This document shows positions 2,595-42,879 of a stretch of DNA of 43,967 bases, in pieces. The DNA comes from an uncultured bacterium (GTDB lineage: Bacteria; RBG-13-66-14). The notes below the pieces were generated by a model. The model did no database searches, was not told the origin of the DNA, and saw only the letters and a list, made by a program, of their open reading frames with translations. Where the stretch lies: contig CAZNZF010000003.1 in assembly GCA_964577465.1 (NCBI GenBank), positions 28,880 through 72,846 on the forward strand, read 5' to 3'. Made by a program: the position numbers and the translations under genes. The stretch's first letter is position 1; each line of letters starts with the position of its first letter.

Positions 2595-4762
2595 GGCCCA
2601 CCGCCGCCCGACAGGGTGAAGCGCGCCCCCATCCGCATCTTTTCGCCGGGCACCAGGCGAACCGACCAGGTCCAGGCGAGCTGCAGCCCCTGCCAGCTCC
2701 TTTTAATACCCGCCTCGGTGCCCTCGACGGTGAGTACGGGGGATGACCAGAGGCCCGCGGCCGGGTCGGCCTCGCTTTTTACGACGAGGCCCGCCCGGCG
2801 ATCGGCCAGCGACCAGGAGACGACTGACCCGTGCCCGTCGCGTCGGGTGATTTTTAACGGAACCGGCCCCGGACTTCCCGCACACAGGATGCTCAAATCG
2901 AGGTCGCGGGGGCCGCTGGGCGGCGAGGGGGAGGAATCCAGCGCCAGGGTCAATGCAATCGGCTTGGGTTCGGGGTTGACGATGTGCACCCCGCAATTCC
3001 ACCCGCCACGGACGAAGGAGTACGCGAGCTCGACCTCGATCCTTCCCCGCCCGAGCGGGACCGACCCGGAGTAGCGGACCTCGGACCCGCGCACCTCGGG
3101 ACCCGCCAGCTCGGGGAAGAGGGCCTCCCCCCTTCCGGCCAGCAGGCGCTCCTTCGCGGCGTCGCCCGGCATGACGACCAGCCGGCAGAATCCGCGTCGG
3201 GCCCGGTCCACGGTGAAACCGCGCTCGCCCCCCCGGTGGTACGGCTCGGCGATGCGGGTGAACCCCCCGGCCAGACCGGCGGGCGGGGCCTTGGACAGCC
3301 AGTCCAGCACCGCCCCCCCGTGATCCAGCACCACCGTCTGCGCCGGGTCGGAAACGACGACCCCGGGCCGGCCGAGCCTCTCGTAGTCGCACGGGGCGAC
3401 CCGGCGGCGGGTGCCGCGGTCCAGCCGGGCCAGCACCCCGGCCAGGCAGCGGTAGCAGTGGTGGCGGAGGAAGTGGTAGTACACGCCCCCGAAGAGGCCG
3501 TGCCAGTAGACGTCGTTCACGGCGGCGGCGTCGAGGAGGTCCAGCAGGCGTTCCGCCTCGGGTGGTTCCAGGGCGCCCTCCGCGTCGGCGAGACGGTCGC
3601 GGGTGTGGAGGTAGGCCAGGTGCAGACGGCCGGATGCGGGGTACTTCGCCAGGAAGTTGCGCCAGTGGGTCCCCCGGGCGAACCGTTCCACCTCCAACTG
3701 GAGCTCGGGCGCCAGGCCGGCTTTTTCGAGCCGCCCGGGAAGCGACTCCAGACGGGACCGGGCCTCGGTGGGGAGCGCCCAGACCCCCATCCGGTCGTAG
3801 GAGGCCGTGGGGAGGTAAACGAGACTTCGCGGCGGCTCTTGCTCTAAAATCTCGGACAGGAGCGCCGTCTCGAGCCAGGGCGGGGCCGAGAGTCCATCCA
3901 GGAAGCGGGCCATCCACCCGTTGCGGTAGCACAGGTCGTAGGTCGTGCCCCGGCGGGCGGGCCAGAGGCCCATCTTCTCCGCGTCGCTCATAACGACCGC
4001 CACGGCGCGCCTTTCGGGGTCGGCCGGACGGCAACCCTCCAAATACTCCACGGTCCGCTCCGGCGCCTCCCAGGGGATGAGGTATCGGATGGGCTCGTTG
4101 ATGGGGAAGACCGCTAAAACCTCCCCGTCGTGCTCCGTGGAGAAAATGGCGTGCGCCTCATCCCGCCGCCAGCCCAAATCGAGGAAGTGCCGGTCGTCCA
4201 GCAGCGTGTAGCGATAACCCGCCCGGGCCAGGTCGGCGGCCAGCTCCGGCTCCCAGACCCGCTCGGCCAGCCAGGCGCCCCAGGGCCGACGCCCGAAAAG
4301 ACCCTCCACGCGGTCGGCCAGCCGGGTGAGTTGCCGGCGGCGGTCACCGGCGGGAATCATGGGCAGAATCGGCTCGTAGTAGCCGCCCCCAAGAATCTCC
4401 AGCCGACCGTCGGCGACGAGCGAGTGAAGAAGCTCGATGAACGGGCGCTGACGGGCGAAAAGCCAGTCCAGGAGCGCCCCGGAGATGTGGAGGTTGAACT
4501 TCAGCCCGCTCGCCGAGAGCGCCCCGACGAGCGGCGAGTAGCTCCGCTCGAAGGCGTGCTCGAAGGTTCCGGGAAAATTACCGACGGGCTGGTGCAGGTG
4601 AAACAGGACCGGCACCGACAACCGGCCCGCGGGGGACGGTGAGGCAAGGGGTTTACGGCTACGCCGTCGCAGGTATGCCAGAGGCATAGCTCGGTTTGCC
4701 GGGGGCATAACTCGCTGCGCTCGGTTCGCTCGGTTAAGCCCCTCGTCCTGTTTGGGGGGCAT
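2591..4762 (-). CDS. GH57 alpha-amylase / 4-alpha-glucanotransferase (N-terminus carries repeat insertion)
   Basis: HLHQP, GGGYYEPIL, WLAERVWEP (nucleophile Glu), SDAEKMGLWP (acid/base Asp), NDVYWHGLFGGVY; TGATG coupling to the kinase stop. Confidence 0.88.
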   Translation of the reverse strand: MPPKQDEGLNRANRAQRVMPPANRAMPLAYLRRRSRKPLASPSPAGRLSVPVLFHLHQPVGNFPGTFEHAFERSYSPLVGALSASGLKFNLHISGALLDWLFARQRPFIELLHSLVADGRLEILGGGYYEPILPMIPAGDRRRQLTRLADRVEGLFGRRPWGAWLAERVWEPELAADLARAGYRYTLLDDRHFLDLGWRRDEAHAIFSTEHDGEVLAVFPINEPIRYLIPWEAPERTVEYLEGCRPADPERRAVAVVMSDAEKMGLWPARRGTTYDLCYRNGWMARFLDGLSAPPWLETALLSEILEQEPPRSLVYLPTASYDRMGVWALPTEARSRLESLPGRLEKAGLAPELQLEVERFARGTHWRNFLAKYPASGRLHLAYLHTRDRLADAEGALEPPEAERLLDLLDAAAVNDVYWHGLFGGVYYHFLRHHCYRCLAGVLARLDRGTRRRVAPCDYERLGRPGVVVSDPAQTVVLDHGGAVLDWLSKAPPAGLAGGFTRIAEPYHRGGERGFTVDRARRGFCRLVVMPGDAAKERLLAGRGEALFPELAGPEVRGSEVRYSGSVPLGRGRIEVELAYSFVRGGWNCGVHIVNPEPKPIALTLALDSSPSPPSGPRDLDLSILCAGSPGPVPLKITRRDGHGSVVSWSLADRRAGLVVKSEADPAAGLWSSPVLTVEGTEAGIKRSWQGLQLAWTWSVRLVPGEKMRMGARFTLSGGGGP
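4641..4748 (-). repeat. Mini-insertion copy A: 81 nt inside a CAAGGGG/CCCCTTG-type palindrome, in frame in the GH57 N-terminus
   Basis: 4676-4737 is the exact reverse complement of 35209-35270 (62/62); the extra 21-nt module matches 28213-28242. Confidence 0.9.
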
Positions 4763-7700
4763 CAGACGGAACCGCCCGGGGGCTCCGGGGGTCTGACGAC
4801 TTCGGAGGCGGACGCACCGGGGCGCTCGACTATAGTGAAGTGTTTCGGCAGCGTGAAGATGAACCGGCTGCCCTCGCCGAGCTCCGACTCCACCCAGATA
4901 CGCCCGTGGTGCCGCTCGATGATGGCCCGCGTAACCGCCAGGCCCAGGCCCGTTCCTCCGTAGTGGCGGGTCAGCGTCGAGTCCACCTGGTACAGACGCT
5001 CGAAGATGCGCTCGAACTCCACCTCGGGGATGCCGATGCCGGTGTCGGCGACCGTGAAGCGGTAGTGCTCCTCGGTCTCGGTGCAGGAAATGGTCACCGT
5101 GCCCTCGCCGATGGTGAACTTGTTGGCGTTCGACAACAGGTGGGTGAAGACGGTCCGTATCTTGGGGAGGTCGACGTCGATGTTGATCGGCTGCTTGGGG
5201 AGCTCTAGAACCAGGCTCATCCGCGGGGTGTCGATGTACTTCGACTGATCGACGAAGAACTCCTCCAGCATCGTGGTCAGGTTGGCGGTGGTGAGGTCCG
5301 GGGTGTACTGGCCGGTTTCGATTTTCAACAGGTCCAGGAGCTCGATGATGAGGTGGCCCAGATGGTCGGATTTTTCGATGATGGTTTCCAGGATGTCCTG
5401 CTGCTTCTCGTTGACCTCGCCGATGACGCGACCGGCCATGAGCTGGGCGTAGCCCTTGATGACGGTTACCGGTGTGTTGAGCTCGTGGGAGACCATGGAG
5501 ACGAAGTCGGACTTCATCTTGTCCACCTTCAGGAGCTCCTCGTTGGCCAGGGCGAGAGCCAGGGCGCGCTCTCGCAGCTCCTGGTACAGGTTGATGTTGT
5601 GGATCGCCTGGGAGAGCTGGTCGGCGACCGTTTCCAGGGCGGAGATATCCGCCGGGTCGAAGGCCTCGGCCTGGGTCGTTTCGAGGTCGAGCACCCCCTT
5701 GACCTCCCCCTCGACGAGGAGGGGAATCGCGAGCTCCGCCCCGATTTCAAAGATGCCGGCGGGCATGATGTAGTGGGGGTCCTTCGAGGTGTCGGGGACG
5801 TAGCGGGTGACGCCGGACCGGGCCGTCCACCCCACGACGCCCTCGGTGGCGGGGACCCGGTAACCTCGACCGACCAGCACGTCGAAGATGCCCGATTGAG
5901 CCTCCAGAACGAGCTCGCCCGCCTCGGAGTCCAGCATGAAAAGGGAGACGTTGTCGTAGCCCAGGGACGCGCCGATGGCGTTCACGGTTTCCCGGAACAG
6001 GGGCTCCAGGTCGAAGGAGGACAGCGCCAACCGGCCGAGGGTGTTGATTATTTTGAGCTGCTCCTGTCGCCGCAGGAGCTCGCGTTCGGCCTCCTTCGCG
6101 GCGGTGATGTCGCGCAGGGAACCCTGGTAGCGGATGTAACCCCCGTCCACCGCCAGGTCGAGGTCCGTCTTGGGGTCCATCACCTCCCGCAGCTCGCCGG
6201 TGCCCCCTTCGTGGCTGGATGAAAACCCCAGTTCCTCGCCGGTCATGTGGCGGGGGAAGGCCTTGGCCTCGACGCTCATAGCGACGACGCGCGATGGTTT
6301 TGTGCCCACGCGCGATTGCAGGTGGAACTCCAGCTCCTGGCGTCCCAGGCCCGACCGCACCCTCTCGAAGGCGCGCTTCACCGCGGCCCGCCAGTCGGGC
6401 ATCACGAGGTCCAGGAAGCTCGTCCCGACGAAGTCGCCCCCCGGCTCACCCACCAGGTTGGAGAATTGGCGGTTGAAGGCCCTGATCCCCAGCTCCTCGT
6501 CGAGAACGTAGAGCGCGTCGGTGGCGTCCCGGAAGAGGTTGCGGTAATCGTTCTGCGAGCGTTCCAGCTCCCACCGCAGCTTGGACGTCGTGATGGCCTG
6601 GGCCGCCAGATAGGCGAAGGATTCCAGCGGCTGTATCGTCGCCTCTGTGGGCGCGAGCCCATCCCGGGGGTCGTCCAGCGAGATGATACCCAGCATCCCC
6701 GAGGGCCCCTCGAGGGGTACGAAGAAGAAATCGTTGGGGTCCCAGTCTATGAACTCTTCCCGCGTGCGGCTCGAGGTCAATCCCTGCTCGCCTATGGTCC
6801 CCTCGACCAGCGCCGCGGGCAGGTAGTACGAGCGGCTGATTTTATCGGCGTTCGCCTTTATCCTCTCCACATCCTCCAGGCTGAACGGCCGCCGTTCCAT
6901 GAGCTCGTCTATCTCCTCCTGGGTCAGCTTGGAGAACGCCACCCTGCGCATCCCGTCCCCCTCGACGAGGGACAGGACCGCCCGCGAGAACGTGGAGTAA
7001 GTGGTTATCGCGTCCACGATGGTCTGGCCTATCTTGTAAAAATTCTTCTGGAGGACGATTTCGGCGCCGATGCGCGAGAAGGCCCTCAACCGCCCATAGG
7101 CCCGGTCCAGCTCCTCGAGCGTTCTCTTCTGGTGCTCGATGTCGTGTGCACCGGCAATCGCCTGGGCGAGGTTCGCGGCGAAGGTTTCGTAGAGCTCCAG
7201 GGGAATCCCTCCCCTGGACGGCAGGAACACCGCCACCCCCTCGAAGTGGTCCTTCGACACCAGGGGGGACACGATGAACTCCGCAATCCCGACCCCCCGG
7301 GCCGACCTGAGGGCTTCGTCCCACAGGGGAGTGAGCTCGCCGAACAACCGCGTGCCTTCCCCGCTCTCCCCGTCATCCCCACTGTCGTGGCCCAGACGCA
7401 GGGAACGTCCCGTCGTCTTCATCCGCTCCACGACGTCGCCCATTACCCGCGGGAGTGATTCGGCGGAGAAGAGGGGGTTGCCGCGGGACGGGGTGTCCTT
7501 GCCTCCCGTGCCTTTACGTCGGTCCAGGGCCCGGGTCAGTTCGTCGGATAAGTGGCTCGCCAGCAGGCGGTACTTCACGTCCCGCGTAGGCTGAGCCTCT
7601 CCGACCGGGGCGAGAACCTGGAGGCCGACCAGCCCCAGAGCCTCGGATATCTTCCCGCAAAGGAGTTCCAGGAGCTGCGACAGCTCGAGCTCCCGGGTGA

Positions 7701-8841: not shown

Positions 8842-8925
8842 GTGGTTAAACGGCCGCAGTTTAGAATAAAAACCAATGATACCACAACCCGCAATGACAC
8901 GGGCACGGGCGGGGGAGTGCCGGCG

Positions 8926-13816: not shown

Positions 13817-14809
13817 CTACCGCTGTACGAACACCTGGACCTGGTGGTTCGACGTGTCCACTATGTAGACGCCGCCCTGGGAGTCGACGACGACGTCCTG
13901 GGGCTGGTTGAACTCGCCCTCGGCGTCTCCCTCGACGCCGAACTTGAGCTCGTAAGCTCCATCGGCGTCGAACCGCTGAACACGGTCGTTGTTGGTGTCG
14001 GCGACGAAAACCTCATCGTCGCCCGAGACCGCGACGCCCTGCGGATAGCGGAAATCGCCGTTTTCCTCGCCCAGCCCGCCCCACGCGGTCAGATACGTTC
14101 CGTCGGAGGCGAACTTCTGGATGCGGCAATTCATCAGGTCCGCCACGTAGATGTTGTCCGCGGAGTCGACGGCCACGGCCGCGGGCCGGTCGAACTCTCC
14201 GTCGCCATCGCCCTTGGTTCCCCAGGAGGAGATGAAGCCGCCCTCCGTGTCGAAGATCTGGATACGATGGTTGTAAGTGTCGGCGACGATGACCCGAGCC
14301 TGGGAATCCACGGCAATCCCGAAGGGACGGTCGAACTCGCCGTCGCCCAGGCCCGATCCCCCCCAAGCCCTGAGGAACGTCCCGGCGGTGTCGAAGACCT
14401 GGATGCGGTCGTTAAAGGTGTCCACGACGTAAACGTCGTTGCCGCCGTCGAGCGCGACGTCGTTGGGGTACAGGAACTCGCCGTCCCCGGTGCCGAGGCT
14501 TCCCCAGGTCAGAAGGAAGGCTCCCTCCGAGTCGAAGACCTGTATCCGGTTGTTCTCCACATCCGCGACGTAGACGTTCGTCTGGTCATCGAGCGCGATG
14601 CCGCGCGGGCTTTGGAACTGCCCCTCCCCCTCCCCCTCGCCCCCCCAGGCGAAGGAGAACTCATAACCTTTATCGCCGGGGCCCGTTCCCGTGTCACAAT
14701 AAACCGACAGAAGGGAGAGAACGGCCAGGCAGGCCAATAGAACCTTTGCGTTTTCCCTTCGGGCGCAGTTACGCCGGGGGGTTACTCGGTTCGTTTCGTT
14801 TCTACCCAT
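13817..14809 (-). CDS. NHL-repeat six-bladed beta-propeller, probable lipoprotein
   Basis: Six repeats of GxGDGEFxxPxGxAxDxxxxxYVADTxNxRIQxF; hydrophobic stretch ending LSVYC. Confidence 0.9.
   Translation of the reverse strand: MGRNETNRVTPRRNCARRENAKVLLACLAVLSLLSVYCDTGTGPGDKGYEFSFAWGGEGEGEGQFQSPRGIALDDQTNVYVADVENNRIQVFDSEGAFLLTWGSLGTGDGEFLYPNDVALDGGNDVYVVDTFNDRIQVFDTAGTFLRAWGGSGLGDGEFDRPFGIAVDSQARVIVADTYNHRIQIFDTEGGFISSWGTKGDGDGEFDRPAAVAVDSADNIYVADLMNCRIQKFASDGTYLTAWGGLGEENGDFRYPQGVAVSGDDEVFVADTNNDRVQRFDADGAYELKFGVEGDAEGEFNQPQDVVVDSQGGVYIVDTSNHQVQVFVQR
14764..14800 (-). repeat. Degenerate mini-insertion copy E in the NHL gene 5' end
   Basis: CGCAGTTACGCC is identical to 28229-28240; the segment from 14773 matches the 30-nt unit at about 22/29 with one gap. 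Confidence 0.55.
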
Positions 14810-28212: not shown

Positions 28213-28242
28213 TTTACGGCTGCGCCGTCGCAGTTACGCCAG
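28213..28242 (+). repeat. Mini-insertion family module copy F in the 5' UTR
   Basis: TTTACGGCTGCGCCGTCGCAGTTACGCCAG vs 4652-4681 TTTACGGCTACGCCGTCGCAGGTATGCCAG (27/30). Confidence 0.75.
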
Positions 28243-28270
28243 TAGCGTTACTTCGTATCCGGGAGGGGTC

Positions 28271-30397
28271 ATGCGACGTTTAACGGTTGTCATCCTGTTG
28301 CTGGTCCTCGCCCTGGCCGCTTTCGGCAACCGGCGGCGCCAGAACGACTGGACCGGCGGACCGGGTCACACGGAGCCGGATTCGGCCTGGGGCACGACCT
28401 TCTACATCAGCTCGAACATCAACTTCTACTACTTCGAGCAGCTATGGCTCGCCTTCTCACCGAACCTGTCTCCGACGCAGCAGCACATCGGGGACGTCAA
28501 CGGGGCCTACTACGTCAAGGCGGGCTACATAGACATGGACAGCTACATGGACGTGGTTGTCTCGTCCTCGGACGCATCCATCTTCGTGTGGTTCAAAAAC
28601 CTGGGGAACGGGGAGTTCGACCCGACGCCGCGCTCCATCATCCCCAACCAGTGGGCCGCCTTCAACATCGTGGACCTCAACGAGGACGGCTACGGGGACA
28701 TCATCATCGGCATAGACAACCCCGGCCCGGCGCACCTCTCCTGGCTGGAAAACGACGGCGACGGTAACTTCACCGAGCACGTCGTGGATCCGAGCTTCAC
28801 CGAGGTGGACCTGCCCGTGGCGGTGGACTTCGACCGGGACTCGGACCTCGACCTCTTCGCCGGCGCGTACCAGTCGTCACCCCTGCGCTGGTACGAAAAC
28901 CTGGGCGACGAGACATTCGATATCCACACCCTCGTCCCCTCGGGCCACTACGGCGGCGAGAACATCGGCCTCACCACGGGCGACTTCAACGGCGACGGCT
29001 GGACGGATGTGGCCTTCAGCTGCCGCTGGAACGGCGAGGTCGTCTGGTGGGAGTACCTGGAGGACTGGACCGACCCCACTCTGGCCTTCACCGAGCACGT
29101 CATCTACACCGGGATGACCGAAGCCTACACCTGCGTCGCCTTCGACATGGACTGGGACCAGGACCCCGACCTGGTGACGAGCTCGCGCAACGGCCGCATC
29201 GACTGGTTCGAGAACGACGGGGCGGGCAATTTCACCGACCATCCCATCACCTCGAGCTACGCCGAATGCCGTGAGGTTTACCCCATAGACGCCGATTACG
29301 ACGGCGACATCGATATACTCGGCGCCACGGAGACCGGCGACAGCCTGGACTGGTGGGAGAACGACGGCGGGATGAGCTTCACCCAGCGGTCGTGGACCAC
29401 GAGCTACGACGGCGCCCACGGCGTCCGCACGGGAGACATCACCGACACCAAGGCCCCCATCGCCATCTCCACCGCCCGCATCGAGGACACAGTCGACTGG
29501 TGGGCGATAACCGAGGGCTTCCGCGACCACGGCACGCTCGACTCGGGTATCCTGGAGTGCGAGTTCGAGAACCCCGACTGGCTCTACTGCGTCTGGGAGG
29601 GATTCGAGGAGACCGGCACGGACATCGCCTTCTACGTCCGCGGGGGAAACGACGTGGACGAGCTCCTGGCCTCCTCCTGGAGCGGACCCTTCCACTCCCA
29701 GTTCGACGTCGGGGACCAAATCGGAGACGGCACGCGCTACTTACAGTACAGGGTGGAAATGACCAGCAGTGACTCCGACGTGTCGCCCAGCCTGTACCAG
29801 GTGGACGTGTACTACCTGGACGGCGACCTGGACGCGGATTCCGTGGCCGTGGAGGCCGAGACCCACGACGAGGGGGTGCTGGTGAGCTGGACCGCCGAGG
29901 GTGAATTCAGCGCCTTCGACCTCCTCCGCGCTTCGGCTGCGAATGCCGACCACCGCGAGCTGTACGTCAAGCTGAACGACCTGCCGCTGCCCGCGGCGTC
30001 CCTCGGCCGCTACCTGGACTACGATGTCGAGGCCGGACGGGGCTACGCCTACATGATTCGGGCGGTGGACGGGGAAGGCTCCGTCTCCGAGTTCGGGCCT
30101 GCCCTCGCCGTGGCGGGCCCAGACGGGGAGATGAGACGCCTGGTGCTGGAGCAGAGCCACCCGAACCCGACCACGGGCCTCACGGTCATTAACTTCAACC
30201 TGCCCACGGAGGGCCCGGCGGAGCTGGCGGTCTACGACCTGGCCGGACGCCGGGTGACGACCCTGGTCTCGGGCGTACTCGCCGCCGGCCGTCACGAGGT
30301 AGGGTTCGACGCCTCCTCCCTGACCGCGGGGGTCTACCTCTACCGCCTGACGGCGTCGGAGGGGACCCTAACGCGACGGCTGGTCGTCGGCCGGTAG
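28271..30397 (+). CDS. Secreted FG-GAP/VCBS repeat protein with T9SS-like C-terminal domain
   Basis: Signal peptide; repeated DxDxDGDxD + W.ENDG.G.F blades; C-terminal QSHPNP...YDLAGRRV...AGVYLYRL. Confidence 0.9.
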   Translation: MRRLTVVILLLVLALAAFGNRRRQNDWTGGPGHTEPDSAWGTTFYISSNINFYYFEQLWLAFSPNLSPTQQHIGDVNGAYYVKAGYIDMDSYMDVVVSSSDASIFVWFKNLGNGEFDPTPRSIIPNQWAAFNIVDLNEDGYGDIIIGIDNPGPAHLSWLENDGDGNFTEHVVDPSFTEVDLPVAVDFDRDSDLDLFAGAYQSSPLRWYENLGDETFDIHTLVPSGHYGGENIGLTTGDFNGDGWTDVAFSCRWNGEVVWWEYLEDWTDPTLAFTEHVIYTGMTEAYTCVAFDMDWDQDPDLVTSSRNGRIDWFENDGAGNFTDHPITSSYAECREVYPIDADYDGDIDILGATETGDSLDWWENDGGMSFTQRSWTTSYDGAHGVRTGDITDTKAPIAISTARIEDTVDWWAITEGFRDHGTLDSGILECEFENPDWLYCVWEGFEETGTDIAFYVRGGNDVDELLASSWSGPFHSQFDVGDQIGDGTRYLQYRVEMTSSDSDVSPSLYQVDVYYLDGDLDADSVAVEAETHDEGVLVSWTAEGEFSAFDLLRASAANADHRELYVKLNDLPLPAASLGRYLDYDVEAGRGYAYMIRAVDGEGSVSEFGPALAVAGPDGEMRRLVLEQSHPNPTTGLTVINFNLPTEGPAELAVYDLAGRRVTTLVSGVLAAGRHEVGFDASSLTAGVYLYRLTASEGTLTRRLVVGR

Positions 30398-34678: not shown

Positions 34679-35179
34679 TTACAGCTTGAAGGTTCCGTGC
34701 TTGACGATGTGCTCGGTGAGGCCGCCGTCGGCTAAAAGCGCCTGCATGGAGTCCGGGATGGGGGTGAAGCGGAGCTCGGTGCGTTTGGTGATGTCGCGGA
34801 TGACGCCCGAGCCCAGGTCCACCTCGAGCTCGTCCCCGTCTCCAATCGCGTCGGTGTCGCACACCAGGGCGGGCAGCCCCACGTTGAACGAGTTGCGGTA
34901 GAAGATGCGGGCGAAGGATTTCGCCAGCACCGCCGACACGCCGCACAACTTTATCACGCGGGGGGCGTGCTCGCGGGAGGAGCCCAGGCCGAAGTTGCGG
35001 CCGCCCACCACGAAGTCGCCCGGCTTCACCCGGGAGGCGAAGGTGGGGTCGGCGTCCTCCAGGGTGTGCTCGGCCAGCTTGGGCAGGTCGTTGCGGAGGT
35101 GGAAGTAGCGCCCCGGGGCGATGTGGTCGGTGGAGATGTCGTCGCCGAACTTGAACGCCCGGCCTTTCAGTACGTCCAC
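34679..35179 (-). CDS. leuD: Isopropylmalate isomerase/homoaconitase-family small subunit (LeuD/HacB type)
   Basis: FGDDISTDHIAPGRY, GRNFGLGSSREHA, SFARIFYRNS.NVGLP; AAGGAGG RBS 7 nt before GTG 35179. Confidence 0.88.
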   Translation of the reverse strand: MDVLKGRAFKFGDDISTDHIAPGRYFHLRNDLPKLAEHTLEDADPTFASRVKPGDFVVGGRNFGLGSSREHAPRVIKLCGVSAVLAKSFARIFYRNSFNVGLPALVCDTDAIGDGDELEVDLGSGVIRDITKRTELRFTPIPDSMQALLADGGLTEHIVKHGTFKL

Positions 35180-35195
35180 GTGCATTCCTCCTTGC

Positions 35196-35286
35196 AGGGG
35201 CAAGGGGTTTAACCGAGCGAACCGAGCGCAGCGAGTTATGCCCCCGGCAAACCGAGCTATGCCTCTGGCAAAATCCCTTGTCTCCT
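35196..35286 (+). repeat. Mini-insertion copy B: 60 nt in the centre of a GGCAAGGGG/CCCTTGTC palindrome, leuC-leuD intergenic region
   Basis: 35209-35270 is identical to the reverse complement of 4676-4737; made of 9+30+21 nt sub-units. Confidence 0.9.
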
Positions 35287-35298
35287 TGCCCGACGGGC

Positions 35299-36549
35299 TC
35301 AGATACGACGCGGGTCGGTGATTTCCCCGGTCAGCGCCGAGGCGGCCACCGTCGCCGGGGAGGCGAGGTAGATGAATCCCTCGGGGTTGCCCATACGGCC
35401 GTGGAAGTTGCGGTTCTGGGTGGCGATGCAGACCTCGCCGTCGCCCAGCACACCCTGGTGGATACCCACGCAGGGCCCGCAGCCCGGCGGCAGCACCGTC
35501 GCGCCCGCGTCCACGAAAATCCCCACGAGTCCCGCGTCGAGGGCGGCGCGGTACACCTTCCGCGAGGCGGGGCAGACGAGGAAGCGGACCCCGGCCGCCG
35601 CCGTCTTCCCCTTGACGATTCCGGCGGCGACCTCCAGGTCGTCCAGGCGGCCGTTGGTGCAGGTGCCGATGAAGGCCTGGTCGATTTTTATCCCCTTCGC
35701 CTCGCCCACGGGGTGCGTGTTGTCCACCGTGTGGGGGAAGCTCACCGTGGGCTCGAGCTTTCCCAGGTCGAAGGCGAAGGTTTTTTCGTACACCGCGTCG
35801 GGGTCGGGGGCGATGGGGGAGAAATCCCCCGGCCGGCCCATCTCGGCGAGGAACGCCTTCGTCTTGTCATCGGCGGCGAAGATGCCGGACTTGGCCCCGG
35901 CCTCCACCGCCATGTTGGAGAGGGTGAAGCGCTCGGACATGGTCAGCCCCGACGCCCCGGGCCCGGTGAAGTCGAGGGACTTGTAGGTCGCCCCGTCGGC
36001 GCCGATGTGCCCGATGATTGAAAGCATCAGGTCCTTGGCGTACACCCCGGGCGGGAAGGAACCGGCGAGCTCGATCTTGAAGCTCTCCGGCACCCGCAGC
36101 CAGACCTTCCCCAGCGCGATGGCGAAGGCCACGTCGGTGGAGCCCATGCCGGTGGCGAAGGCCCCCAGGGCGCCCGAGGTGACGGTGTGGGAATCCGCCC
36201 CGACGAGAAGGTCGCCGGGGCGGATGTAGTCCTCGACCATGCGCTGGTGACAGACGCCCTGGCCGATCTCGGAGACGATCACGCCGGTCTTGGCGGCGAA
36301 ATCCCGCAGGATGGCGTGGGCGTTGGAGAGCTCCTTGCGCGGGCTCGGCGAGGCGTGGTCCAGGAAGATGACCGTCCGTTTCGGGTGGGCGGCCTGGACT
36401 TTCCCGGCCTTCTCCAGCTCCCGCACCGACAGGGGGCCGGTGCCGTCCTGAACCAGGGCGGCGTCCACGTCGGCGATGACGAGCTCCCCCGGCGCGGCCG
36501 GACCGCCCGCGTGGGCGGAGATGATTTTCTCGGCGAGTGTCTGTCCCAT
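35299..36549 (-). CDS. leuC: Isopropylmalate isomerase/homoaconitase-family large subunit (LeuC/HacA type)
   Basis: MGQTLAEKI, GVCHQ, GADSHT, IGTCTNGR, PGCGPC (4Fe-4S Cys), NRNF.GRMG. Confidence 0.9.
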   Translation of the reverse strand: MGQTLAEKIISAHAGGPAAPGELVIADVDAALVQDGTGPLSVRELEKAGKVQAAHPKRTVIFLDHASPSPRKELSNAHAILRDFAAKTGVIVSEIGQGVCHQRMVEDYIRPGDLLVGADSHTVTSGALGAFATGMGSTDVAFAIALGKVWLRVPESFKIELAGSFPPGVYAKDLMLSIIGHIGADGATYKSLDFTGPGASGLTMSERFTLSNMAVEAGAKSGIFAADDKTKAFLAEMGRPGDFSPIAPDPDAVYEKTFAFDLGKLEPTVSFPHTVDNTHPVGEAKGIKIDQAFIGTCTNGRLDDLEVAAGIVKGKTAAAGVRFLVCPASRKVYRAALDAGLVGIFVDAGATVLPPGCGPCVGIHQGVLGDGEVCIATQNRNFHGRMGNPEGFIYLASPATVAASALTGEITDPRRI

Positions 36550-36559
36550 GGGGCTCCTA

Positions 36560-37990: not shown

Positions 37991-38119
37991 CTGAACCTCC
38001 TGACATGCAAGCTTCAGTGCTTCATTGAAAGTGTTTACGGGATTTTCGTGAAAAGAGCGCCTGACTGAATTAACACCGTTGCGGGGTAAGAAGAGTTCAT
38101 TCATTCAAACGCATTTTCT

Positions 38120-38148
38120 AGAGTAAGGTACGAAAAGGGTATTGTCAA
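38120..38148 (-). promoter_or_regulatory. sigma70 promoter of the Re-CS operon
   Basis: TTGACA (38143-38148), 17 nt, TACTCT (38120-38125). Confidence 0.7.
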
Positions 38149-38207
38149 GGGAAGGGCTCGGCCATCCCGGAGGTGTAAAATCCAATTTATGTCCAGTATT
38201 TACAAAT

Positions 38208-38246
38208 AAAAAGGCCACTCGATGGTAAATCGGAGTGGCAAAAAAA
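38208..38246. terminator. Intrinsic terminator after the methionine operon
   Basis: GCCACTC / GAGTGGC stem with a T-tract on the minus strand. Confidence 0.7.
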
Positions 38247-38265
38247 TATATAAATCCCTAGTCAA

Positions 38266-39429
38266 TTACGGTGATAAGCCGAGCCTCTCCGCCGCCAGGT
38301 TTCGGCCCGCGACCATGCTGGAGAGCTTGGCGAAGGTCACCTCCCAGTTGCGGGTGCGCAGGCCGCAGTCCGGCGCCACGAAGACCCGCCCCGGGTCCCC
38401 GATGACCTCGCAGGCGTAGAGAATGCGGTCGCGTACCAGCTCCGGCGGCTCGATGAAATCGGTGTGCACGTCCAGCACGCCCAGCCCCACGATGAAGCCG
38501 GTGTCCTTGAGGGAGTCCAGGATGCCGTAGCCGATTCTTTTATCCTTCGAGACGCCGGGCTCCCGGGAGTCGCGGTTGGCGTACTCCAGGTGCACTTCAT
38601 CGAGCACCCCCTCGAGCTCGGTGAGCCGGGGGAAGAGGAGGTCGTAGTTCGAGAAGCAGATGTGGACGGTGAAGAAGGCCTTCCCCGCCAGGTCGCCGAC
38701 GCTCGCGCGCGTGGCCTCGATGAACTCGGGAATTTCGTCGCGCTTGGTGGTGGCGGCGGGCTCGTCGATTTGCAGGAACCGGGCGCCCGCCTCATGGAGG
38801 GCGCGCAGGTTGGGATAGACTATGTCCCCGGCCACGTCGGTGAGGAACCGTCTGCGCGCCTCTTTTCGGGTTTCTCCGACGTCCCGGGCGCCGGGGGTGA
38901 CGCCGCTCTGGTAGTGCTCGTCGAAGGACCAGTCCACCAGCGTGTAGGCGCCGGTGACCGGAATCTTGACCTCCCGCCGGGCGAAGGCGGCGATGGTCCG
39001 GTACTCATCGGTGTGGTAGGGCGCTTCGAGGATGGGCTTCTCGACGCAGGAGGCCTTGCGGTAGTATTTGTCGTCGAAGCTGCGCACGTGGCCCCGGAAG
39101 GTGAAGCCGCCCATCCGGCGGACCGGGTACTCGTACATCTCCACCCGGTGCTGCTCACCGTCCCACACCAGGTCGAGCCCCGCCCGCTCCTGGAGGCGAA
39201 TGCCGTAGAGGGAGGAGAACCGGACGATACGGTCCTTCTCCTCGGCGGTGAAGCCGTCCCGCTTGGAGAGCAATTCCAGGAGCCCGCCCGCCTCCTCGAT
39301 ACCCAGCCGCGCTCCCCACTCCCGGGCGTGGTCGAGGTCGCCCTCGTCCAACGGGATGCGGCGGAAGGGCTTGACCCGCCAGGGGGGCTTGGCCATGGAG
39401 CCGATTTCGTGCGTCGGAAGCGGCCTCAT
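38266..39429 (-). CDS. metE: Cobalamin-independent methionine synthase, catalytic (C-terminal barrel) subunit
   Basis: EIGS, DGEQ.R, TGAYTL, QIDEPA; Zn ligands HIC, LEY and PDCGLR; single-barrel length. Confidence 0.85.
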   Translation of the reverse strand: MRPLPTHEIGSMAKPPWRVKPFRRIPLDEGDLDHAREWGARLGIEEAGGLLELLSKRDGFTAEEKDRIVRFSSLYGIRLQERAGLDLVWDGEQHRVEMYEYPVRRMGGFTFRGHVRSFDDKYYRKASCVEKPILEAPYHTDEYRTIAAFARREVKIPVTGAYTLVDWSFDEHYQSGVTPGARDVGETRKEARRRFLTDVAGDIVYPNLRALHEAGARFLQIDEPAATTKRDEIPEFIEATRASVGDLAGKAFFTVHICFSNYDLLFPRLTELEGVLDEVHLEYANRDSREPGVSKDKRIGYGILDSLKDTGFIVGLGVLDVHTDFIEPPELVRDRILYACEVIGDPGRVFVAPDCGLRTRNWEVTFAKLSSMVAGRNLAAERLGLSP

Positions 39430-40355
39430 CCCAGTATCTCCCGAAGATTAGTTACCTTGGCCTCCAGCACGGTCCGGGGGAGGAGCTCCGCCGGCCCGCT
39501 GGGGGTCAGGTGGATTTTATCATCCGGCAGCCTGTCGCGCAGGCTCGCCAGAACGCCCCGCAGCACGTCGGGGGATTCGACCAGTGTCGAGCCGGTGGCC
39601 AGGACGCCCGCCAGGAAAGCTTTGCCGTCCGGGATGCGCCCGAGGACGTCGTCCAGCGGATTCGCGTAGAGGTCCACCCCGAAGCCGTCCGCCGGCAGCC
39701 CGAAGAAATACTCCAGGTCATCGCCCAGGGGGAAGAAGGCGCTCACCAGATAAACGGGCGTCGGGGACAGGGCCTTGAGCCGGGCGATGAAGTCGGTGCC
39801 GATACGCCGGTCCTCATCGCCGAAGCCGCGGTAGCCGAAGCCGGGCTCGAAGAGGCACAGGGCCTTGTTCGGCAGCTTCACCAAAGGCTCCGCGGCCTCC
39901 AGCAGAATCTCGGCGATGCGCGGCAGACCGAGGCCCCGGGAGAAATCGCGGAAGACGAAGGGGAAGGGGAGCGTGAAGACCAGCCCCTCGTCCTTGTTAA
40001 AGAGGCCGTCGGTCAGGAAGTATCGGCCGACCCAGTCGTCCAGGCGGGAGGCGTCCACCGCGGCGTCGGGGGGGAATTCGAGGGTGCGCCAGAAGGAGTT
40101 GGTCTCGAAGAACCTCGCCAGGCCGTCCACCGCGCAGCCGGGGACGATTTCCGAAAAGGGACGCAACAGGTCGCCCCAGGCGAGCATACCGGGGGAGGCG
40201 TGGGGCAGCCCCTCCTGGAGACGCCGCAGGCCCAGGACGTCGGCCCGTCTCGCCTTCTCGAGCTCCCGGCGCCCGATGCGCCCCCGCTCGAAATCCCGCG
40301 TGGCGCGGACCAGCCCCTCGGAACGCGGCATGATGCCCGGCAGAAGAACGTCCAT
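39426..40355 (-). CDS. MetE N-terminal-barrel-like subunit (split MetE partner)
   Basis: GIMPRSE.L..ATR, G.L.W.DLLRP, L.RFFETNSFWR, G..G.D, VE, LPR.V...KV..L; no Zn ligands; ATGA overlap with the catalytic subunit. Confidence 0.75.
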   Translation of the reverse strand: MDVLLPGIMPRSEGLVRATRDFERGRIGRRELEKARRADVLGLRRLQEGLPHASPGMLAWGDLLRPFSEIVPGCAVDGLARFFETNSFWRTLEFPPDAAVDASRLDDWVGRYFLTDGLFNKDEGLVFTLPFPFVFRDFSRGLGLPRIAEILLEAAEPLVKLPNKALCLFEPGFGYRGFGDEDRRIGTDFIARLKALSPTPVYLVSAFFPLGDDLEYFFGLPADGFGVDLYANPLDDVLGRIPDGKAFLAGVLATGSTLVESPDVLRGVLASLRDRLPDDKIHLTPSGPAELLPRTVLEAKVTNLREILG

Positions 40356-40356
40356 C

Positions 40357-41244
40357 TCAGCCCAATCTCCCCAGGATGCGGCCCAGAATCCTCTCGGAGA
40401 GCCCCAGGTTCGAGTACATCACGTGCTCGACGTTGAACCCCAGCTTTATCCCGGTATCCTGCAGGTCCTTGGCCTTTAAATCGAAAACCTCATCGATGAC
40501 CCGCTCCACCACCTCGAAGGTGCGCTGCTCGATTCGCTCCTCCTCCTCCACCAGGTAGTCCAGCACGGCCGAGGGAAACTCGACACCCAGCCAGGTCATG
40601 AACTCGATGTCCCGGATGCGCGAGGCCGGGGTGAGGGAGACGTAGATCTCGGGGAACGGGAGTCCCTCCTCCCGACACCGGCGGTCGAGCTGGGCGAGAA
40701 CCTGCTTCATGTTGGCCGTCTCGAAGACGATCTGGGAGCAGAAGAAATCGATGCCCGCCTTTATCTTGGCCACGATGCGGTCCGCCTCGCGGGGGCGGGT
40801 GAAGATGGTGATGCCGCCAAGCCTCACGTCGGGGTAATTCTCCCGGACGAAGGACGCCGCCTCGGGGACGGACCAGCCCGGGTAATCGATGCGGTTGGAC
40901 TCGCCGCCCACCAGAATGAGGTCCCGGACGCCCCCGGCGTGGACCTCCCCGACCCAGTCCCGGAACTTGGGCGGCGGGACGCGGACGCAGATTTTATTCG
41001 GGACCAGGGCCACTCCCGGCAAGACCTCCCGCACCATCTCACCGAAGCGCACCTGGTCCATCTTCTTCAAAAAGCTCACCGCCCGGTTGCCGTCCCGGCT
41101 TTCGCTCACCACCTCGGGGATGTTCAACCGGGTGAGGTCGTTGGCCGCCAGGATACGGGCGACGCGGGAGGCCCAGACCCGGGCCTTGTCCTCCCGCCAG
41201 GACTGGGGGGGCGTGATGATTTCGAAGATGATGCCTTCAACCAT
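40357..41244 (-). CDS. Methylenetetrahydrofolate reductase-like protein (divergent/mycobacterial-type MTHFR fold)
   Basis: FEIITPP, NIPEV, LVGGES, GGITIF.R..E..R...K...G.DFF.SQIVF; first gene of the met operon; probable start ATG 41244 (the ORF extension to 41403 runs through the repeat). Confidence 0.72.
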   Translation of the reverse strand: MVEGIIFEIITPPQSWREDKARVWASRVARILAANDLTRLNIPEVVSESRDGNRAVSFLKKMDQVRFGEMVREVLPGVALVPNKICVRVPPPKFRDWVGEVHAGGVRDLILVGGESNRIDYPGWSVPEAASFVRENYPDVRLGGITIFTRPREADRIVAKIKAGIDFFCSQIVFETANMKQVLAQLDRRCREEGLPFPEIYVSLTPASRIRDIEFMTWLGVEFPSAVLDYLVEEEERIEQRTFEVVERVIDEVFDLKAKDLQDTGIKLGFNVEHVMYSNLGLSERILGRILGRLG

Positions 41245-41305
41245 AAAAAACCGTCGTACCAGTTCCCGATTCCAATCCGGTGAAACCCGGGGCACGCGCC
41301 GCGAC

Positions 41306-41389
41306 CGGAGGATAATTTGCCGGGGGCATAGCTCGCTTCGCTCGGTTCGCCGGAGGCGTAGCTCGCCGAGCTCAGTTTCGCGGAGGATA
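41306..41389 (-). repeat. Mini-insertion copy C: two tandem 30-nt units between 9-bp direct repeats CGGAGGATA
   Basis: DRs at 41306-41314 and 41381-41389; units at 41318-41347 and 41348-41377. Confidence 0.88.
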
Positions 41390-41433
41390 GCACACCGGCT
41401 CATCGGTCGCCAGGGTGAACCCGTCCCGTCTCC

Positions 41434-41442
41434 ATTATACCA
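41434..41442 (-). promoter_or_regulatory. Extended -10 promoter of the met operon
   Basis: TGGTATAAT (TGnTATAAT); no clear -35. Confidence 0.55.
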
Positions 41443-41520
41443 TCCGGCGACCCGGGCTCCGATGGTTGGCTCAACGCGCGACCGGGCTGGAGGTGAGCCT
41501 CGACCGGACCACCCTTTTAT

Positions 41521-42879
41521 CTATACCCCGACTCCCTTCCGGCGCTGGGTCGAGGTATCGGCAAGGAGTGATTGGGTTATCCCCCGAAAATTCCCGAGCC
41601 GGGTGGCGAAGACTATCGAGGCGAGAATGGCGGCGACCCCGCCCGCGAACATCGTCCACGGCGCGGTTATGAGGTCTGCGAGGCCGCCCACGAGAAGGCT
41701 CCCGAAGGGGAGGACCCCCATCATGGCGGTCGTGTAAAAGGCCATCACCCGGCCGCGCTTCGATTCGTCCACGATGTTCTGGATGACCGTGTTCGACGTG
41801 GCCAGTTGGGCCATCATCCCGAAACCGGCGACGACCATGAGGACGAGCGAAAGCCAGAGCGTTCTCGAAAAAGAGGCGAGAAGCAGCCCCGTGCCGAAGA
41901 TGAAAGCGGCGATGGGGATGATTTTCCACAGGCCGACGAAGGCCTTGCGCGACGCGAGAAACACCGCTCCGCCCAGCGCGCCCACGCCGATGGCGCCCAT
42001 GAGGAATCCGTAGGTGCTGGCGTCGCCCGCCAGCACGAGCTTCGCCATGACCGGCATGATCGTTATATAAGGCATGGCCGTGAGACTCAAAAATGAGAGC
42101 ATGATAAGGATGGACCGTATGGGCAGCGAGCGGAAGGTGTAGGACAGGCCTTCCTTGAGCTCGGTAAACACCTTTCCTGCGCCCCCGGCCGGCCTTGCGT
42201 GCTCGATGCGCATGGCGGCGAGCGAGACGATGACCGCGAGATAGCTCACCGCATTCAACAGGAAGCAGACCTTCTCGCCGAATCCGGCGATTACGAGCCC
42301 CGCGATTAGGGGTCCGACGAGCCTCGCGCCGTTGAACAGGGCCGAGTTCATCGCTATGGCCGAGGCCAAATCCTCCCGGCGGTCGACCATCTTTATGACG
42401 AACGCCTGCCGCGTGGGCATATCCACGGAGTTCACCAGGCCGATGAAGAGGCCCAGGGCGAATATGTGCCAGATTTGGACGACGCCGGTGTAGACGATGA
42501 CGGTCAGAATGACCGCCTGAAGCGTCGCAAGCCCCTGCGTCCAGATGAGTATGCGCCGGCGGTCGAGTCGGTCTATGAGGACGCCGGCGAAAGGCATGAT
42601 GAAGAGGGAGGGAATCTGGGTGACGAACCCCACCGCGCCGAGGAGCAGGGCCGAGCCCGTGAGCTTATAGACGAGCCAGGACATGGCTATCATCTGCATC
42701 CACGTGCCGACGACGGAAATGCCCTGACCCAGGAAAAAGAGCCGGTAGTTGCGATACCTGAAGGCCCGCAGCATGTGCTTCAAATCTGTGACCAATTTCG
42801 GATGATTTGCCAGGGGCATAGCTCGCTTCGCTCGGTTTGCCGGCGACGCCTCGGGATGATTTTCTTCCGGACCCATCAC
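41521..42879 (-). CDS. MFS transporter (MFS_3 / EntS-like), N-terminus carries repeat insertion
   Basis: RAFRYRNYRLFFLGQ.IS..GTWMQ, GVLIDRLDRRR (motif A), D.P.RQA, RGRVMA; 12 TM pattern. Confidence 0.92.
   Translation of the reverse strand: MMGPEENHPEASPANRAKRAMPLANHPKLVTDLKHMLRAFRYRNYRLFFLGQGISVVGTWMQMIAMSWLVYKLTGSALLLGAVGFVTQIPSLFIMPFAGVLIDRLDRRRILIWTQGLATLQAVILTVIVYTGVVQIWHIFALGLFIGLVNSVDMPTRQAFVIKMVDRREDLASAIAMNSALFNGARLVGPLIAGLVIAGFGEKVCFLLNAVSYLAVIVSLAAMRIEHARPAGGAGKVFTELKEGLSYTFRSLPIRSILIMLSFLSLTAMPYITIMPVMAKLVLAGDASTYGFLMGAIGVGALGGAVFLASRKAFVGLWKIIPIAAFIFGTGLLLASFSRTLWLSLVLMVVAGFGMMAQLATSNTVIQNIVDESKRGRVMAFYTTAMMGVLPFGSLLVGGLADLITAPWTMFAGGVAAILASIVFATRLGNFRGITQSLLADTSTQRRKGVGV
42800..42862 (-). 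repeat. Mini-insertion copy D: 54 nt in frame, between 9-bp direct repeats GGATGATTT
   Basis: DRs at 42800-42808 and 42854-42862; the unit at 42808-42837 is 29/30 identical to 41318-41347; protein reads NHP-EASPANRAKRAMPLA-NHP. Confidence 0.88.

Follow-up and report, generated by a model that had tools for sequence, protein, structure and literature searches.

Why should one stretch of bacterial DNA carry, at the beginnings of several of its genes, pieces of the same very short sequence? The window considered here, the whole stretch of 43,967 nucleotides that was analysed, comes from an uncultured salt-marsh bacterium whose sister species carry the same repeats. It contains six loci (A to F; Table 1), all found where the original prediction had placed them and all lying, as claimed, within the first ~40 codons of a gene or no more than ~150 nt upstream of a start. 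With up to 3 mismatches allowed, a 30-nt unit occurs four times in the window and never in 100 shuffles, and a 21-nt M module occurs twice against 0 expected. These had been taken for copies of a non-autonomous, dispersed, frame-preserving element aimed at gene 5' ends. That the family is non-autonomous and dispersed, and that its insertions are precise and recent, is borne out by empty orthologous sites at B, C, D and E; what becomes of the aim at gene starts is seen only on the scale of the genome.

Table 1. Repeat loci of the window and their modules, in window coordinates
Feature	Position	Strand	Description
Locus A	4643..4747	-	arms 4736-4747 and 4643-4654 around 81 nt of modules
A, 9-mer	4727-4735	-	
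A, 30-nt unit	4697-4726	-	
A, 21-nt short unit	4676-4696	-	
A, 21-nt M module	4655-4675	-	
Locus E	14744..14800	-	diverged modules after codon 3 of lipoprotein-like ORF 13817..14809
E, 9-mer	14792-14800	-	
E, 20-nt unit	14772-14791	-	
E, 18-nt module	14754-14771	-	CCC-GAA-GGG
E, tail	14744-14753	-	
Locus F	28216..28256	-	
F, 21-nt M module	28216-28236	-	
F, short unit	28237-28256	-	degenerate
Locus B	35199..35285	+	arms 35199-35210 and 35271-35285
B, 9-mer	35211-35219	+	
B, 30-nt unit	35220-35249	+	
B, 21-nt unit	35250-35270	+	
Locus C	41318..41378	-	two tandem units
C, 30-nt unit	41318-41347	-	consensus
C, second unit	41348-41378	-	diverged
Locus D	42808..42861	-	
D, 30-nt unit	42808-42837	-	
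D, second module	42838-42861	-	older, degenerate

The family is assembled from blocks: a 9-mer (AACCGAGCG), a 21-nt unit, the 30-nt unit that combines the two (9 + 21), a 28-nt variant and M modules of 18-22 nt, with the 9-mer in 1-4 tandem copies and arrays that reach ~150 nt. Blocks terminate in a stem of 3-5 bp that closes a 3-nt loop, and several bear the DNA mini-hairpin motif GC-GNA-GC; the stems of the 30-nt unit are 4 bp of TGCC/GGCA and 2-3 bp of GC-GNA-GC. With stems of 3-5 bp only, the unit is, as first described, neither a palindrome nor bounded by terminal inverted repeats. No position of the unit varies more than the N of GCGNAGC (A44/C9/T9/G3); the M module varies at the N of its GNA as well (14/8/2/1), and pair 20-30 of the unit covaries (T-A 54, C-G 8, C-A 3), a pattern that could represent one inherited subfamily change. 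Because nearest-neighbour DNA folding of a single unit gives a stability no better than that of shuffles (z -0.04 and +0.94), the case for mini-hairpins extends no further than the identity of the motif, which is a published one (PMC13037366), and its pattern of variation. The insertion point is N^AA(A/T) throughout; AA flanks every insert on both sides and occurs once at the junction of every empty site read, which would fit a 2-nt target duplication or, equally, a fixed target and an element ending in AA.

Several quantitative claims of the original prediction can be set against this anatomy. Loci A and B do split into 9-, 21- and 30-nt blocks (A = 9+30+21+21 = 81 nt; B = 9+30+21 = 60 nt), and neither insert is bare: inverted arms of a palindrome family enclose both, and over a 73-nt arm B is 96% complementary to A. 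The lengths of 81 and 60 nt stand, whereas the 75 and 54 nt given for two further inserts do not, the differences from orthologous empty sites being 30 nt at D, 48 nt at E and 0, 30 or 60 nt at C. The absence of stop codons from five of the six frames of the unit is nothing special, as 79% of random 30-mers from this genome (66% GC) are open in 5 or 6 frames.

The sister species (G001 to G005) allow the loci to be read as filled and empty sites. At D, where the unit supplies codons 14-23 of ORF 41521..42876 (MGPEENHPEASPAN[RAKRAMPLAN]HPKLV...), G001 has the unit-free GGATGATT^TGCCGGCGACG and this genome is exactly 30 nt longer; the site is also empty in G002 and G003, and the start codon upstream of the insert is conserved. 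At E, MGRNETNRVTPRRNCARRENAKVLLACLAV here stands against MGRYATVLLACLAV in G002, a gain of 48 nt here; G001, G002 and G005 all keep the start codon and the ribosome-binding site. Locus A falls within the N-terminal extension of an ORF (2591..4762) whose ATG shares bases with the stop before it (TGATG); the site is a bare palindrome, GGGGCTT^AAGCCCC, in G001 and holds an independent palindrome-plus-module insert in G003, and the stretch that separates the coupled ATG from the conserved core (147/75/63/129/45 nt) is open and a multiple of three in 5/5 species. This spacing, together with the conserved upstream starts at D and E, upholds the claim that the units add N-terminal peptides to real coding sequences. 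The other three loci lie upstream of genes. Locus C, in the 5' leader of gene 40357..41244 and downstream of a promoter-like TGGTATAAT site near 41440, has 0 units in G002, 1 in G001 and 2 in both this genome and G004, while one environmental contig (run X10), from a strain identical in all else, is short of exactly 30 nt at 41315. Locus B occupies the spacer of two minus-strand genes, is antisense to both and closely precedes the ribosome-binding site of the leuD-like gene 34679..35185. It is absent from G001, G002 and G005; G004 has instead an independent single unit in frame after codon ~4 of its leuD-like gene. Locus F directly precedes the ribosome-binding site of the plus-strand gene 28271..30397, to which it is antisense; among the sister species its M module is common only to this genome and G002, G003 and G004 having the older short unit only and G001 and G005 neither.

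The same kind of difference recurs beyond the window. Palindrome centres have gained 30 nt (L057 vs contig C85) and 60 nt (L067 vs C1), a REP loop (L084 vs C75) and a coding sequence (L093 vs C5) have each gained 30 nt, and contig C130 carries empty and filled paralogous REPs. Among 27 syntenic sites filled in G003/G004, 21 lack the unit here, 4 have it in common and 2 could not be read. Contigs assembled from independent environmental runs, the form that the environmental evidence takes, span the window junctions without conflict, and neither an excision product nor a circle junction was seen in them. Occupancy varies between sister species as well as inside the natural population, and there is little doubt that the family inserts precisely and is mobile now or was so recently.

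It is also restricted to one genus. There are 65 of the 30-nt units in the 2.48-Mb genome and 107 loci by profile search; all five sister species, all within that genus, are positive with 13-208 copies, and none of 35 other genomes searched contains the 30-nt unit. Many copies are exactly centred in a 22-nt palindrome or lie inside the loops of REP hairpins flanking RAYT genes. The palindrome family has 85 unfilled copies and ~20 filled at TTT^AAA, in either orientation; the filled ones are ~17 of TTTAAA type vs 0-1 of CTTAAG type, the empties 51:18, a skew that conversion or hitch-hiking fits as well as direct targeting. REPs of the form GGCGGGG...CCCCGCC are filled in 17 cases vs 294 with short loops. 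The statement that no transposase is present holds for the window, but other parts of the genome encode five RAYTs, all five Y1 proteins scoring above the cut-off as REP-associated tyrosine transposase. The search for a trans-acting factor yields these five candidates, and no reverse transcriptase domain was found. GTAG-REPs that hold the unit flank the RAYT genes of contigs C13 and C130 and their orthologue on G003 C256; what flanks the RAYT genes is the REP and not the unit, which sits in the REP loop. Copy number does not track RAYT content: G001 (100% complete) has 38 units, yet only the C113-type RAYT. Palindrome centres and REP loops, the main structural context, and the candidate RAYTs had gone unnoticed in the original prediction.

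These patterns can best be seen as the product of genus-restricted, ultra-short modular repeats that would be moved as single-stranded DNA by RAYT/HUH enzymes, with survivors filtered by selection, a reading to which a probability of about one half may be given. The modules would travel as single-stranded DNA, to be cut and pasted adjoining AA wherever single strands are exposed, as at hairpin tips or in the lagging-strand template; the enzyme would be of the HUH Y1 type, most plausibly one of the five RAYTs acting in the manner of IS200/IS605, and blocks might move singly, as composite arrays or as REP passengers. This mechanism, argued by analogy, is a tentative proposal with somewhat less than an even chance of being right; RAYTs recognise a GTAG tag and a palindrome, both missing from the units. 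In its favour, 26/32 loci are co-oriented (24/27 for solo copies) within regions with at least 85% of genes on one strand, though GC skew gave no replication-strand signal (45/94) and this strand bias is therefore not assignable to replication over transcription or selection. That selection explains the 5' and 3n pattern is, on the other hand, likely. Purifying selection would keep inserts of 21-30 nt where they are tolerated, in spacers and at gene starts and ends, and the 3n lengths of coding copies, along with part of the sense bias, would result from it and not from 5'-end targeting. The original prediction had itself conceded that selection alone could give such a bias, and this is judged the better reading.

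The repeats might also have spread with no dedicated enzyme, through microhomology template switching, gene conversion between palindromes or REPs, and slippage or unequal exchange in arrays. New units are often found beside old ones (D, C, F), C and F growing as arrays in which units adjoin older degenerate ones, and recombination or slippage could be an alternative source of this adjacency. The empty site of D already ends in ...CCGGCAAAT, resembling the end of the unit; the tandem 9-mers, the near-restriction of filled palindromes to one subtype, the lack of a reverse transcriptase and the absence of an evident relation of copy number to RAYT content agree with such processes, and an orthologous palindrome (L078 vs contig C33) whose unit points one way in G003 and the other way here is what recombination between arms is expected to produce. 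This account nonetheless appears rather unlikely in the face of exact 30-nt gains in contexts that have AA alone in common (the G004 leuD-like N-terminus, several REP-loop subtypes, palindrome centres and the middle of a recG-like gene) and of identical composite arrays at several unrelated G003 sites, and homologous recombination usually calls for more than the 11-17 bp that the palindrome arms offer.

Orientation brings up a further alternative, that the unit is chiefly a functional motif kept in transcripts under positive selection, either a leader or translation-start element or a positive N-terminal tag (NRAKRAMPPA) for signal peptides, which would make sense copies build up at the 5' ends of genes. 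Core-CDS copies are sense in 16/18 cases, solo copies between co-directional genes are 20 sense vs 9 antisense, and convergent spacers are depleted (1 observed vs 8.7 expected). The unit has an in-frame ATG in frame 1, and signal-peptide or membrane N-termini occur among its hosts (locus E and copies on contigs C1 (120648), C43 and C60). A selected motif would nevertheless be hard to reconcile with the lack of a favoured peptide among the frames used, with the 21 of 27 sister-filled sites that are unit-free here, with palindrome copies in both orientations, with B and F antisense to the genes that they precede, or with spacers that have no preference for starts over stops; Rfam has no family matching the unit either, and the alternative seems quite improbable.

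Even less probable is templated insertion aimed at the first codons or the leader in a frame-preserving manner, as originally proposed, a reading that the genome-wide census largely refutes. All six window loci at 5' ends, 10 of the 18 core-CDS copies in the first 17% of their gene and the independent insertion in the G004 leuD-like N-terminus would agree with it. Yet 72 of the 107 loci are intergenic, those in co-directional spacers are near stops as often as starts (27 nearer the start vs 30 nearer the stop), and the other core-CDS copies lie in the last 4% of the gene (3) or between (5), so that mid-gene and C-terminal positions are represented. Frame preservation as a property of the mechanism finds no support: the reading frames are used 9/7/8, and modules of 22 and 20 nt are not multiples of three. 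It is chiefly in palindrome centres and REP loops that the units insert. That the family is an ancestral conserved motif or an assembly artefact, suggested at most by the few copies common to several species (the recG-like mid-gene copy, shared with G004, the contig C52 copy and the short unit at F), is refuted by the empty orthologous sites at B, C, D and E and many in the other direction, six independently assembled genomes carrying the family and environmental contigs agreeing at the junctions.

On the best reading the family is an ultra-small non-autonomous mobile repeat, with its closest precedents in REP/RAYT, SDR, RPE, IS200/IS605 and MIRU/BOX. REPs are likewise short, high-copy and mostly extragenic, with some in frame at N- or C-termini or inside ORFs (PMC3733652), and the GTAG-23 REPs of T. 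roseum sit in small palindromes, hundreds of copies of which are unoccupied (PMC3733652, Di Nocera et al. 2013). The likeness to REPs and REPINs extends to coding copies, small-palindrome nesting and RAYTs in the same genome. In contrast to the REP, a 20-40-bp imperfect palindrome, the unit is not palindromic; its consensus has neither GTAG nor CGTC (the CTAC that a minority variant shows on its sense strand, 5' of the hairpin, has the wrong polarity), and it occupies REP loops, with stems of 3-5 bp, modular lengths of 9/18/21/22/28/30 nt and insertion at N^AA. MITEs differ in having IS-matching inverted termini of 15-30 bp, which the unit lacks, the arms at A and B being a separate palindrome family, and in measuring about 70-300 bp against 18-30 nt. 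A parallel might also be struck with the SDRs of Nostoc punctiforme (Elhai et al. 2008), reportedly 21-27 nt long, regarded as mobile, nested in repeats or hairpin contexts and without a known transposase; size, nesting and the coexistence of filled and empty sites would fit, but phylum and sequence are different.

RPEs are palindromic elements of ~100-150 bp. In Rickettsia they insert in frame into functional ORFs (cited in PMC3733652 and PMC3184786). Loci D, E and A and the recG-like copy do the same, though the insert here is of 21-30 nt, non-palindromic and mainly intergenic. With IS200/IS605 the family would share, as those elements are generally described, the lack of terminal inverted repeats and of a clear target duplication, small end hairpins, a short fixed motif at insertion, the presence of the HUH Y1 family and local gene-strand orientation. 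Their single-strand 'peel and paste' transposition is a mechanistic analogue (PMC6006769). The unit, however, has 30 nt against ~700-2000 nt, encodes nothing and would have only AA as its target motif. MIRU units measure 40-100 bp and are not known to occupy hairpin tips or unrelated coding sequences; BOX modules exceed the present ones in size and are limited to spacers. Modular short units, variable tandem number and operon spacers would link the family to MIRU, BOX and BIME, and in MIRU fashion the insert at A leaves an ORF uninterrupted from a stop-start overlap to the core of the next gene. It differs from MIRU and BOX elements, the latter tabulated in PMC3184786, in its smaller units and their occurrence at hairpin tips and in unrelated coding sequences.

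Whether these repeats might amount to an undescribed class of mobile DNA, namely single-stranded cassettes of 21-30 nt with GNA-triloop mini-hairpins, pasted next to AA by a RAYT-type HUH enzyme, is a bolder and on present grounds unlikely proposition. If true, these would be the first RAYTs shown to move non-REP cargo, and an uncultured phylum would possess a natural means of varying its leaders and N-terminal peptides. The family illustrates how genes can be altered by the spread of DNA pieces as small as these.

The repeat considered here is genus-restricted, modular and ultra-short; across many unrelated sites with only AA in common it has been acquired, or else lost, with base precision, and it markedly favours the tips of hairpins of two kinds. 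The window holds four copies of its 30-nt unit (9 + 21 nt) at up to three mismatches, against none in 100 shuffles, and two of the related 21-nt module (the M module), where zero are expected. On reading each of the six loci, the coordinates and the modular anatomy of the original prediction were confirmed (Table). Its further observation, that the unit is open in five of six frames, is uninformative and is rejected as a sign of design: among random 30-mers drawn from the source genome (66% GC), 79% are open in five or all six frames.

The source genome is a 2.48-Mb assembly in 234 contigs, 99.8% complete; the closest public record with a name is a Candidatus Coatesbacteria MAG, a leuD-like protein being 83% identical in amino acids. 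It carries 65 copies of the unit at up to five mismatches and 21 of the module, some of the latter in tandem with a period of 22, all copy numbers being lower bounds because repeats break assemblies. A profile search found 107 loci, of which about 13, many at contig ends, are a 28-nt variant within one REP subtype and were left out of the orientation and spacer tests (94 remain). At up to three mismatches, the unit occurs 57 times in the source genome and in all five other species of the genus (38, 24, 208, 96 and 13 copies), thus spanning 16-fold in copy number across six species, and none of 35 genomes outside the genus has it (other genera of the family, 4; rest of the phylum, 15; more distant lineages, 16), every genome compared being a draft MAG and the kin genomes not being independent of each other. 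A literature search by topic found no description of the unit, and the window gave no match to Rfam at gathering thresholds, leaving the unit unsupported as an RNA family.

Synteny with the sister species is kept, with alignments interrupted at the repeat loci, where the empty orthologous sites whose search had been proposed earlier are indeed present. At locus D, sister species G001 reads GGATGATT^TGCCGGCG and the source genome is longer by exactly 30 nt; the site is also empty in G002 and G003. At locus E, G002 has MGRYATVLLACLAV against MGRNETNRVTPRRNCARRENAKVLLACLAV in the source genome, a difference of +48 nt, with the start codon and the ribosome-binding site upstream conserved. Locus C shows a graded series, with no unit in G002, one in G001 and two each in the source genome and G004. 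The element at locus B is absent from G001, G002 and G005; in G004, beside the same site, the neighbouring leuD-like gene instead carries one in-frame unit, placed behind codon ~4. The M module at locus F is common to the source genome and G002 only. Every empty site read has the junction N^AA(A/T), and AA flanks the insert on both sides. Direct repeats flanking loci C and D (TATCCTCCG, AATCATCC) were considered as target duplications and rejected, both copies being already in the empty orthologues.

The reverse comparison started from units of G003 and G004, in 40 surrounding regions that contain 46 arrays; the 27 with a syntenic pair in the source genome were scored and the 19 without a pair were not. 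The unit is absent from the source genome at 21 of these 27 and present in both genomes at four (a recG-like mid-gene copy, contig C1 at 7871, contig C52 and one palindrome with the unit in opposite orientation), the other two being unreadable through runs of N. Exact gains were read at palindrome centres, in a REP loop and in coding sequence (Table). One orthologous palindrome (L078 on G003 contig C121, against source contig C33:12555-12602) bears the 30-nt unit in opposite orientation in the two species, reflecting either two independent insertions or an inversion of the loop when its arms recombined. A composite array of a 10-mer, the 30-nt unit and a 20-nt unit, AACCGAGTAATGCCCCGGCA, is repeated at unrelated sites of G003 (L088, L093, L076), which suggests that arrays move as blocks.

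Table. Loci of the repeat family and associated features (C plus number, source-genome contigs; L plus number, loci of sister genomes G003/G004)
Feature	Location	Build or difference
Locus A	host palindrome, window 4643-4747	9+30+21+21 = 81 nt
Locus B	host palindrome, window 35199-35285	9+30+21 = 60 nt
Locus C	window 41318..41378, minus strand	two units in tandem
Locus D		single unit adjoining degenerate older unit
Loci E and F		diverged relatives, 18-21 nt
Direct repeats in locus E host gene (13817..14809, minus strand)	window 13959-14576	four, in register, 141 or 282 nt apart, 63-74% identity
Extended -10-like site, TGGTATAAT	window ~41436-41444, minus strand	upstream of locus C
Extended -10-like site, TGGTATAAT	window ~42948-42956, minus strand	upstream of locus D
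Palindrome example	C1 71102-71119	
Palindrome example	C85 near 7564-7589	
RAYT gene	C13:190-636	
RAYT gene	C130:224-685	
RAYT gene	C113:1484-1954	
RAYT gene	C128:2311-2784	
RAYT gene	C123:4383-4775	
28-nt-variant REP at contig ends	C32:1-80, C116:1-230, C93, C153, C175, C199	GGCGGGG-AACCGAGCGAAGCGAGCTATGCGAAGCA-AATCCTTTCCCCGCC
Palindrome centre	L057 vs C85	+30
Palindrome centre	L067 vs C1	+60
REP loop	L084 vs C75	+30
Coding sequence	L093 vs C5	+30

The first kind of hairpin is a palindrome family, (AAGGAG)ACAAGGGGTTT^AAACCCCTTGT(CTCCTT), between whose inverted arms loci A and B sit. It is abundant as a perfect palindrome of 22-34 nt, (AAGGAG)ACAAGGGGTTTAAACCCCTTGT(CTCCTT): the source genome has 85 unfilled copies (centre TTTAAA in 51, CTTAAG in 18), and about 17-20 among the copies listed carry a unit at their precise centre, pointing either way. 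The palindrome is both older and more widespread than the unit, with 2-66 copies in the sister species, 36 in another genus of the family that lacks the unit and one or two in some genomes from other families. Its outer arms resemble the Shine-Dalgarno sequence and its complement.

The second kind comprises the loops of REPs. Genome-wide there are about 294 short-loop GGCGGGG...CCCCGCC hairpins and 17 filled ones, and on contig C130 an unfilled REP, GGCGGGGATGGG^AATCCCCGCC-CTAC, lies next to two otherwise identical copies that contain the 30-nt unit. One REP subtype holds the 28-nt variant, with a second hairpin, TGC-GAA-GCA. This variant has multiplied together with its REP, and the composite, found at many contig ends, is a main cause of assembly breaks, its copy number probably being underestimated. 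The source genome codes for five Y1 proteins, all above the curated cut-off as REP-associated tyrosine transposases (RAYTs); their genes, with products of 131-158 aa, are 38-49% GC in a genome of 66%, and each is flanked by its own, different GTAG-REP subtype.

Placement was assessed with our own simple gene caller, which also supplied the gene starts (2135 genes, 86% coding). Most loci are intergenic (72 of 107, against 14% non-coding DNA genome-wide), core coding sequence holds 18, of which 16 are sense and 2 antisense, and putative N-terminal extensions hold 17, with 10 sense and 7 antisense. Over the 94 loci, without the 28-nt variant, the observed and expected numbers by spacer class are 57 and 44.1 for co-directional, 9 and 14.2 for divergent, and 1 and 8.7 for convergent spacers; within co-directional spacers, 27 loci lie closer to the start and 30 to the stop. 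Of the core coding copies, 10 lie within the opening 17% of the gene and 3 within its final 4%, the other 5 falling between these, and the sense coding copies use the three reading frames 9, 7 and 8 times. The original prediction had held that the insertions are targeted to gene 5' ends in multiples of three, while allowing that selection alone might account for this. The intergenic majority, the even split between starts and stops and the mixed frames speak against targeting, and the 5' and 3n pattern is most readily accounted for by selection acting on the places that can accept an insert of 21-30 nt. From the coupled ATG of locus A to the conserved core, five species have 147, 75, 63, 129 and 45 nt, all multiples of three and open, and the N-terminal extension therefore appears to be translated. 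The -10-like sites, spotted by eye, would place the units at loci C and D in the transcribed leader or first codons. The direct repeats in the host gene of locus E suggest a repeated domain of ~47 aa in its lipoprotein-like product.

Unit orientation matches the local majority gene strand at 59 of 94 loci; where 85% or more of the genes share a strand, 26 of 32 loci follow it (solo copies 24/27, palindrome-hosted copies 2/4). GC skew, tried as a proxy for replication direction, bears no relation to unit orientation (45/94) and agrees with the gene-strand majority in 9 of 31, and was not used further.

The unit can be written as AACCGAGCG + AAGCGAGCT + ATGCCCCCGGCA. Its most variable position is the N of GCGNAGC (A44/C9/T9/G3, n=65), a motif published as 'mini-hairpin DNA' (PMC13037366); the loop of TGCC-NNN-GGCA is variable too, as is the N of CGGC-GNA-GCCG in the M module (A14/C8/T2/G1, n=25). 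The pair 20-30 is T-A in 54, C-G in 8 and C-A in 3 copies of the source genome (48, 9 and 1 in the G003/G004 sample), a covariation that may be one inherited change. Folded as DNA with ViennaRNA, single units do not outperform their shuffles, so that folding energy does not single the unit out and a mini-hairpin structure would be read from the motif and its variation.

As to mechanism, RAYT movement of REPs is itself only presumed. The lack of inverted ends and of a clear duplication, the end-proximal hairpins, the fixed short target, the strand bias and the presence of RAYTs without a reverse transcriptase would fit a unit that moves as single-stranded DNA via an HUH Y1 enzyme, in the manner of IS200/IS605. 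Recombination or template switching fits as well as a means of spreading units: the unit has no GTAG tag, RAYT content has no clear relation to unit copy number across the six genomes, the filled palindromes are biased by subtype, and new units grow beside older ones, all of which count against movement by an HUH enzyme. Retro-insertion was set aside, the 99.8%-complete genome yielding no reverse transcriptase domain (RVT_1).

Variation may also exist in the environment, where contigs from four sequencing runs agree with the window, and one 288-nt contig of run X10 (depth 4.5), otherwise identical to it, lacks exactly 30 nt at 41315, in locus C. The comparison used contigs, with uncovered stretches and contigs ending within units counted neither way; a look for RNA runs found none on record. 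An assembly error would hardly yield such a difference, since the reads must contain the junction word, and this single contig suggests, as a lead rather than proof, that the number of units in the locus C leader is polymorphic in a natural population.

The very small mobile repeats of Nostoc known as SDRs (small dispersed repeats) were reportedly described by Elhai et al. in 2008, and the cyanobacterial SDRs are not known to have a mover. Being neither palindromic nor tagged, the unit is not a REP, and with no inverted termini and too small a size it is not a MITE; it is provisionally filed with the small-dispersed-repeat kind, among which it is notable for its size, base-exact junctions, loop-only position in REPs and mini-hairpin motifs. 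In-frame small repeats at ORF termini, and REPs inside small palindromes that are also present unoccupied in hundreds of copies, have already been published (PMC3733652, PMC3184786).

The genus offers an unusually clean natural experiment, in which 30-nt gains are readable to the base, with several target types in one genome (the unfilled palindromes, REP subtypes and coding sequences), five candidate enzymes, a wide range of copy number and at least one presence/absence variant that appears still to segregate in the environment. For annotation, such repeats upset start-codon calls and break assemblies at predictable places. For the organisms themselves, these tiny repeats lengthen leaders and the N-termini of real proteins, including the n-regions of signal peptides and, as it appears, a translationally coupled extension.
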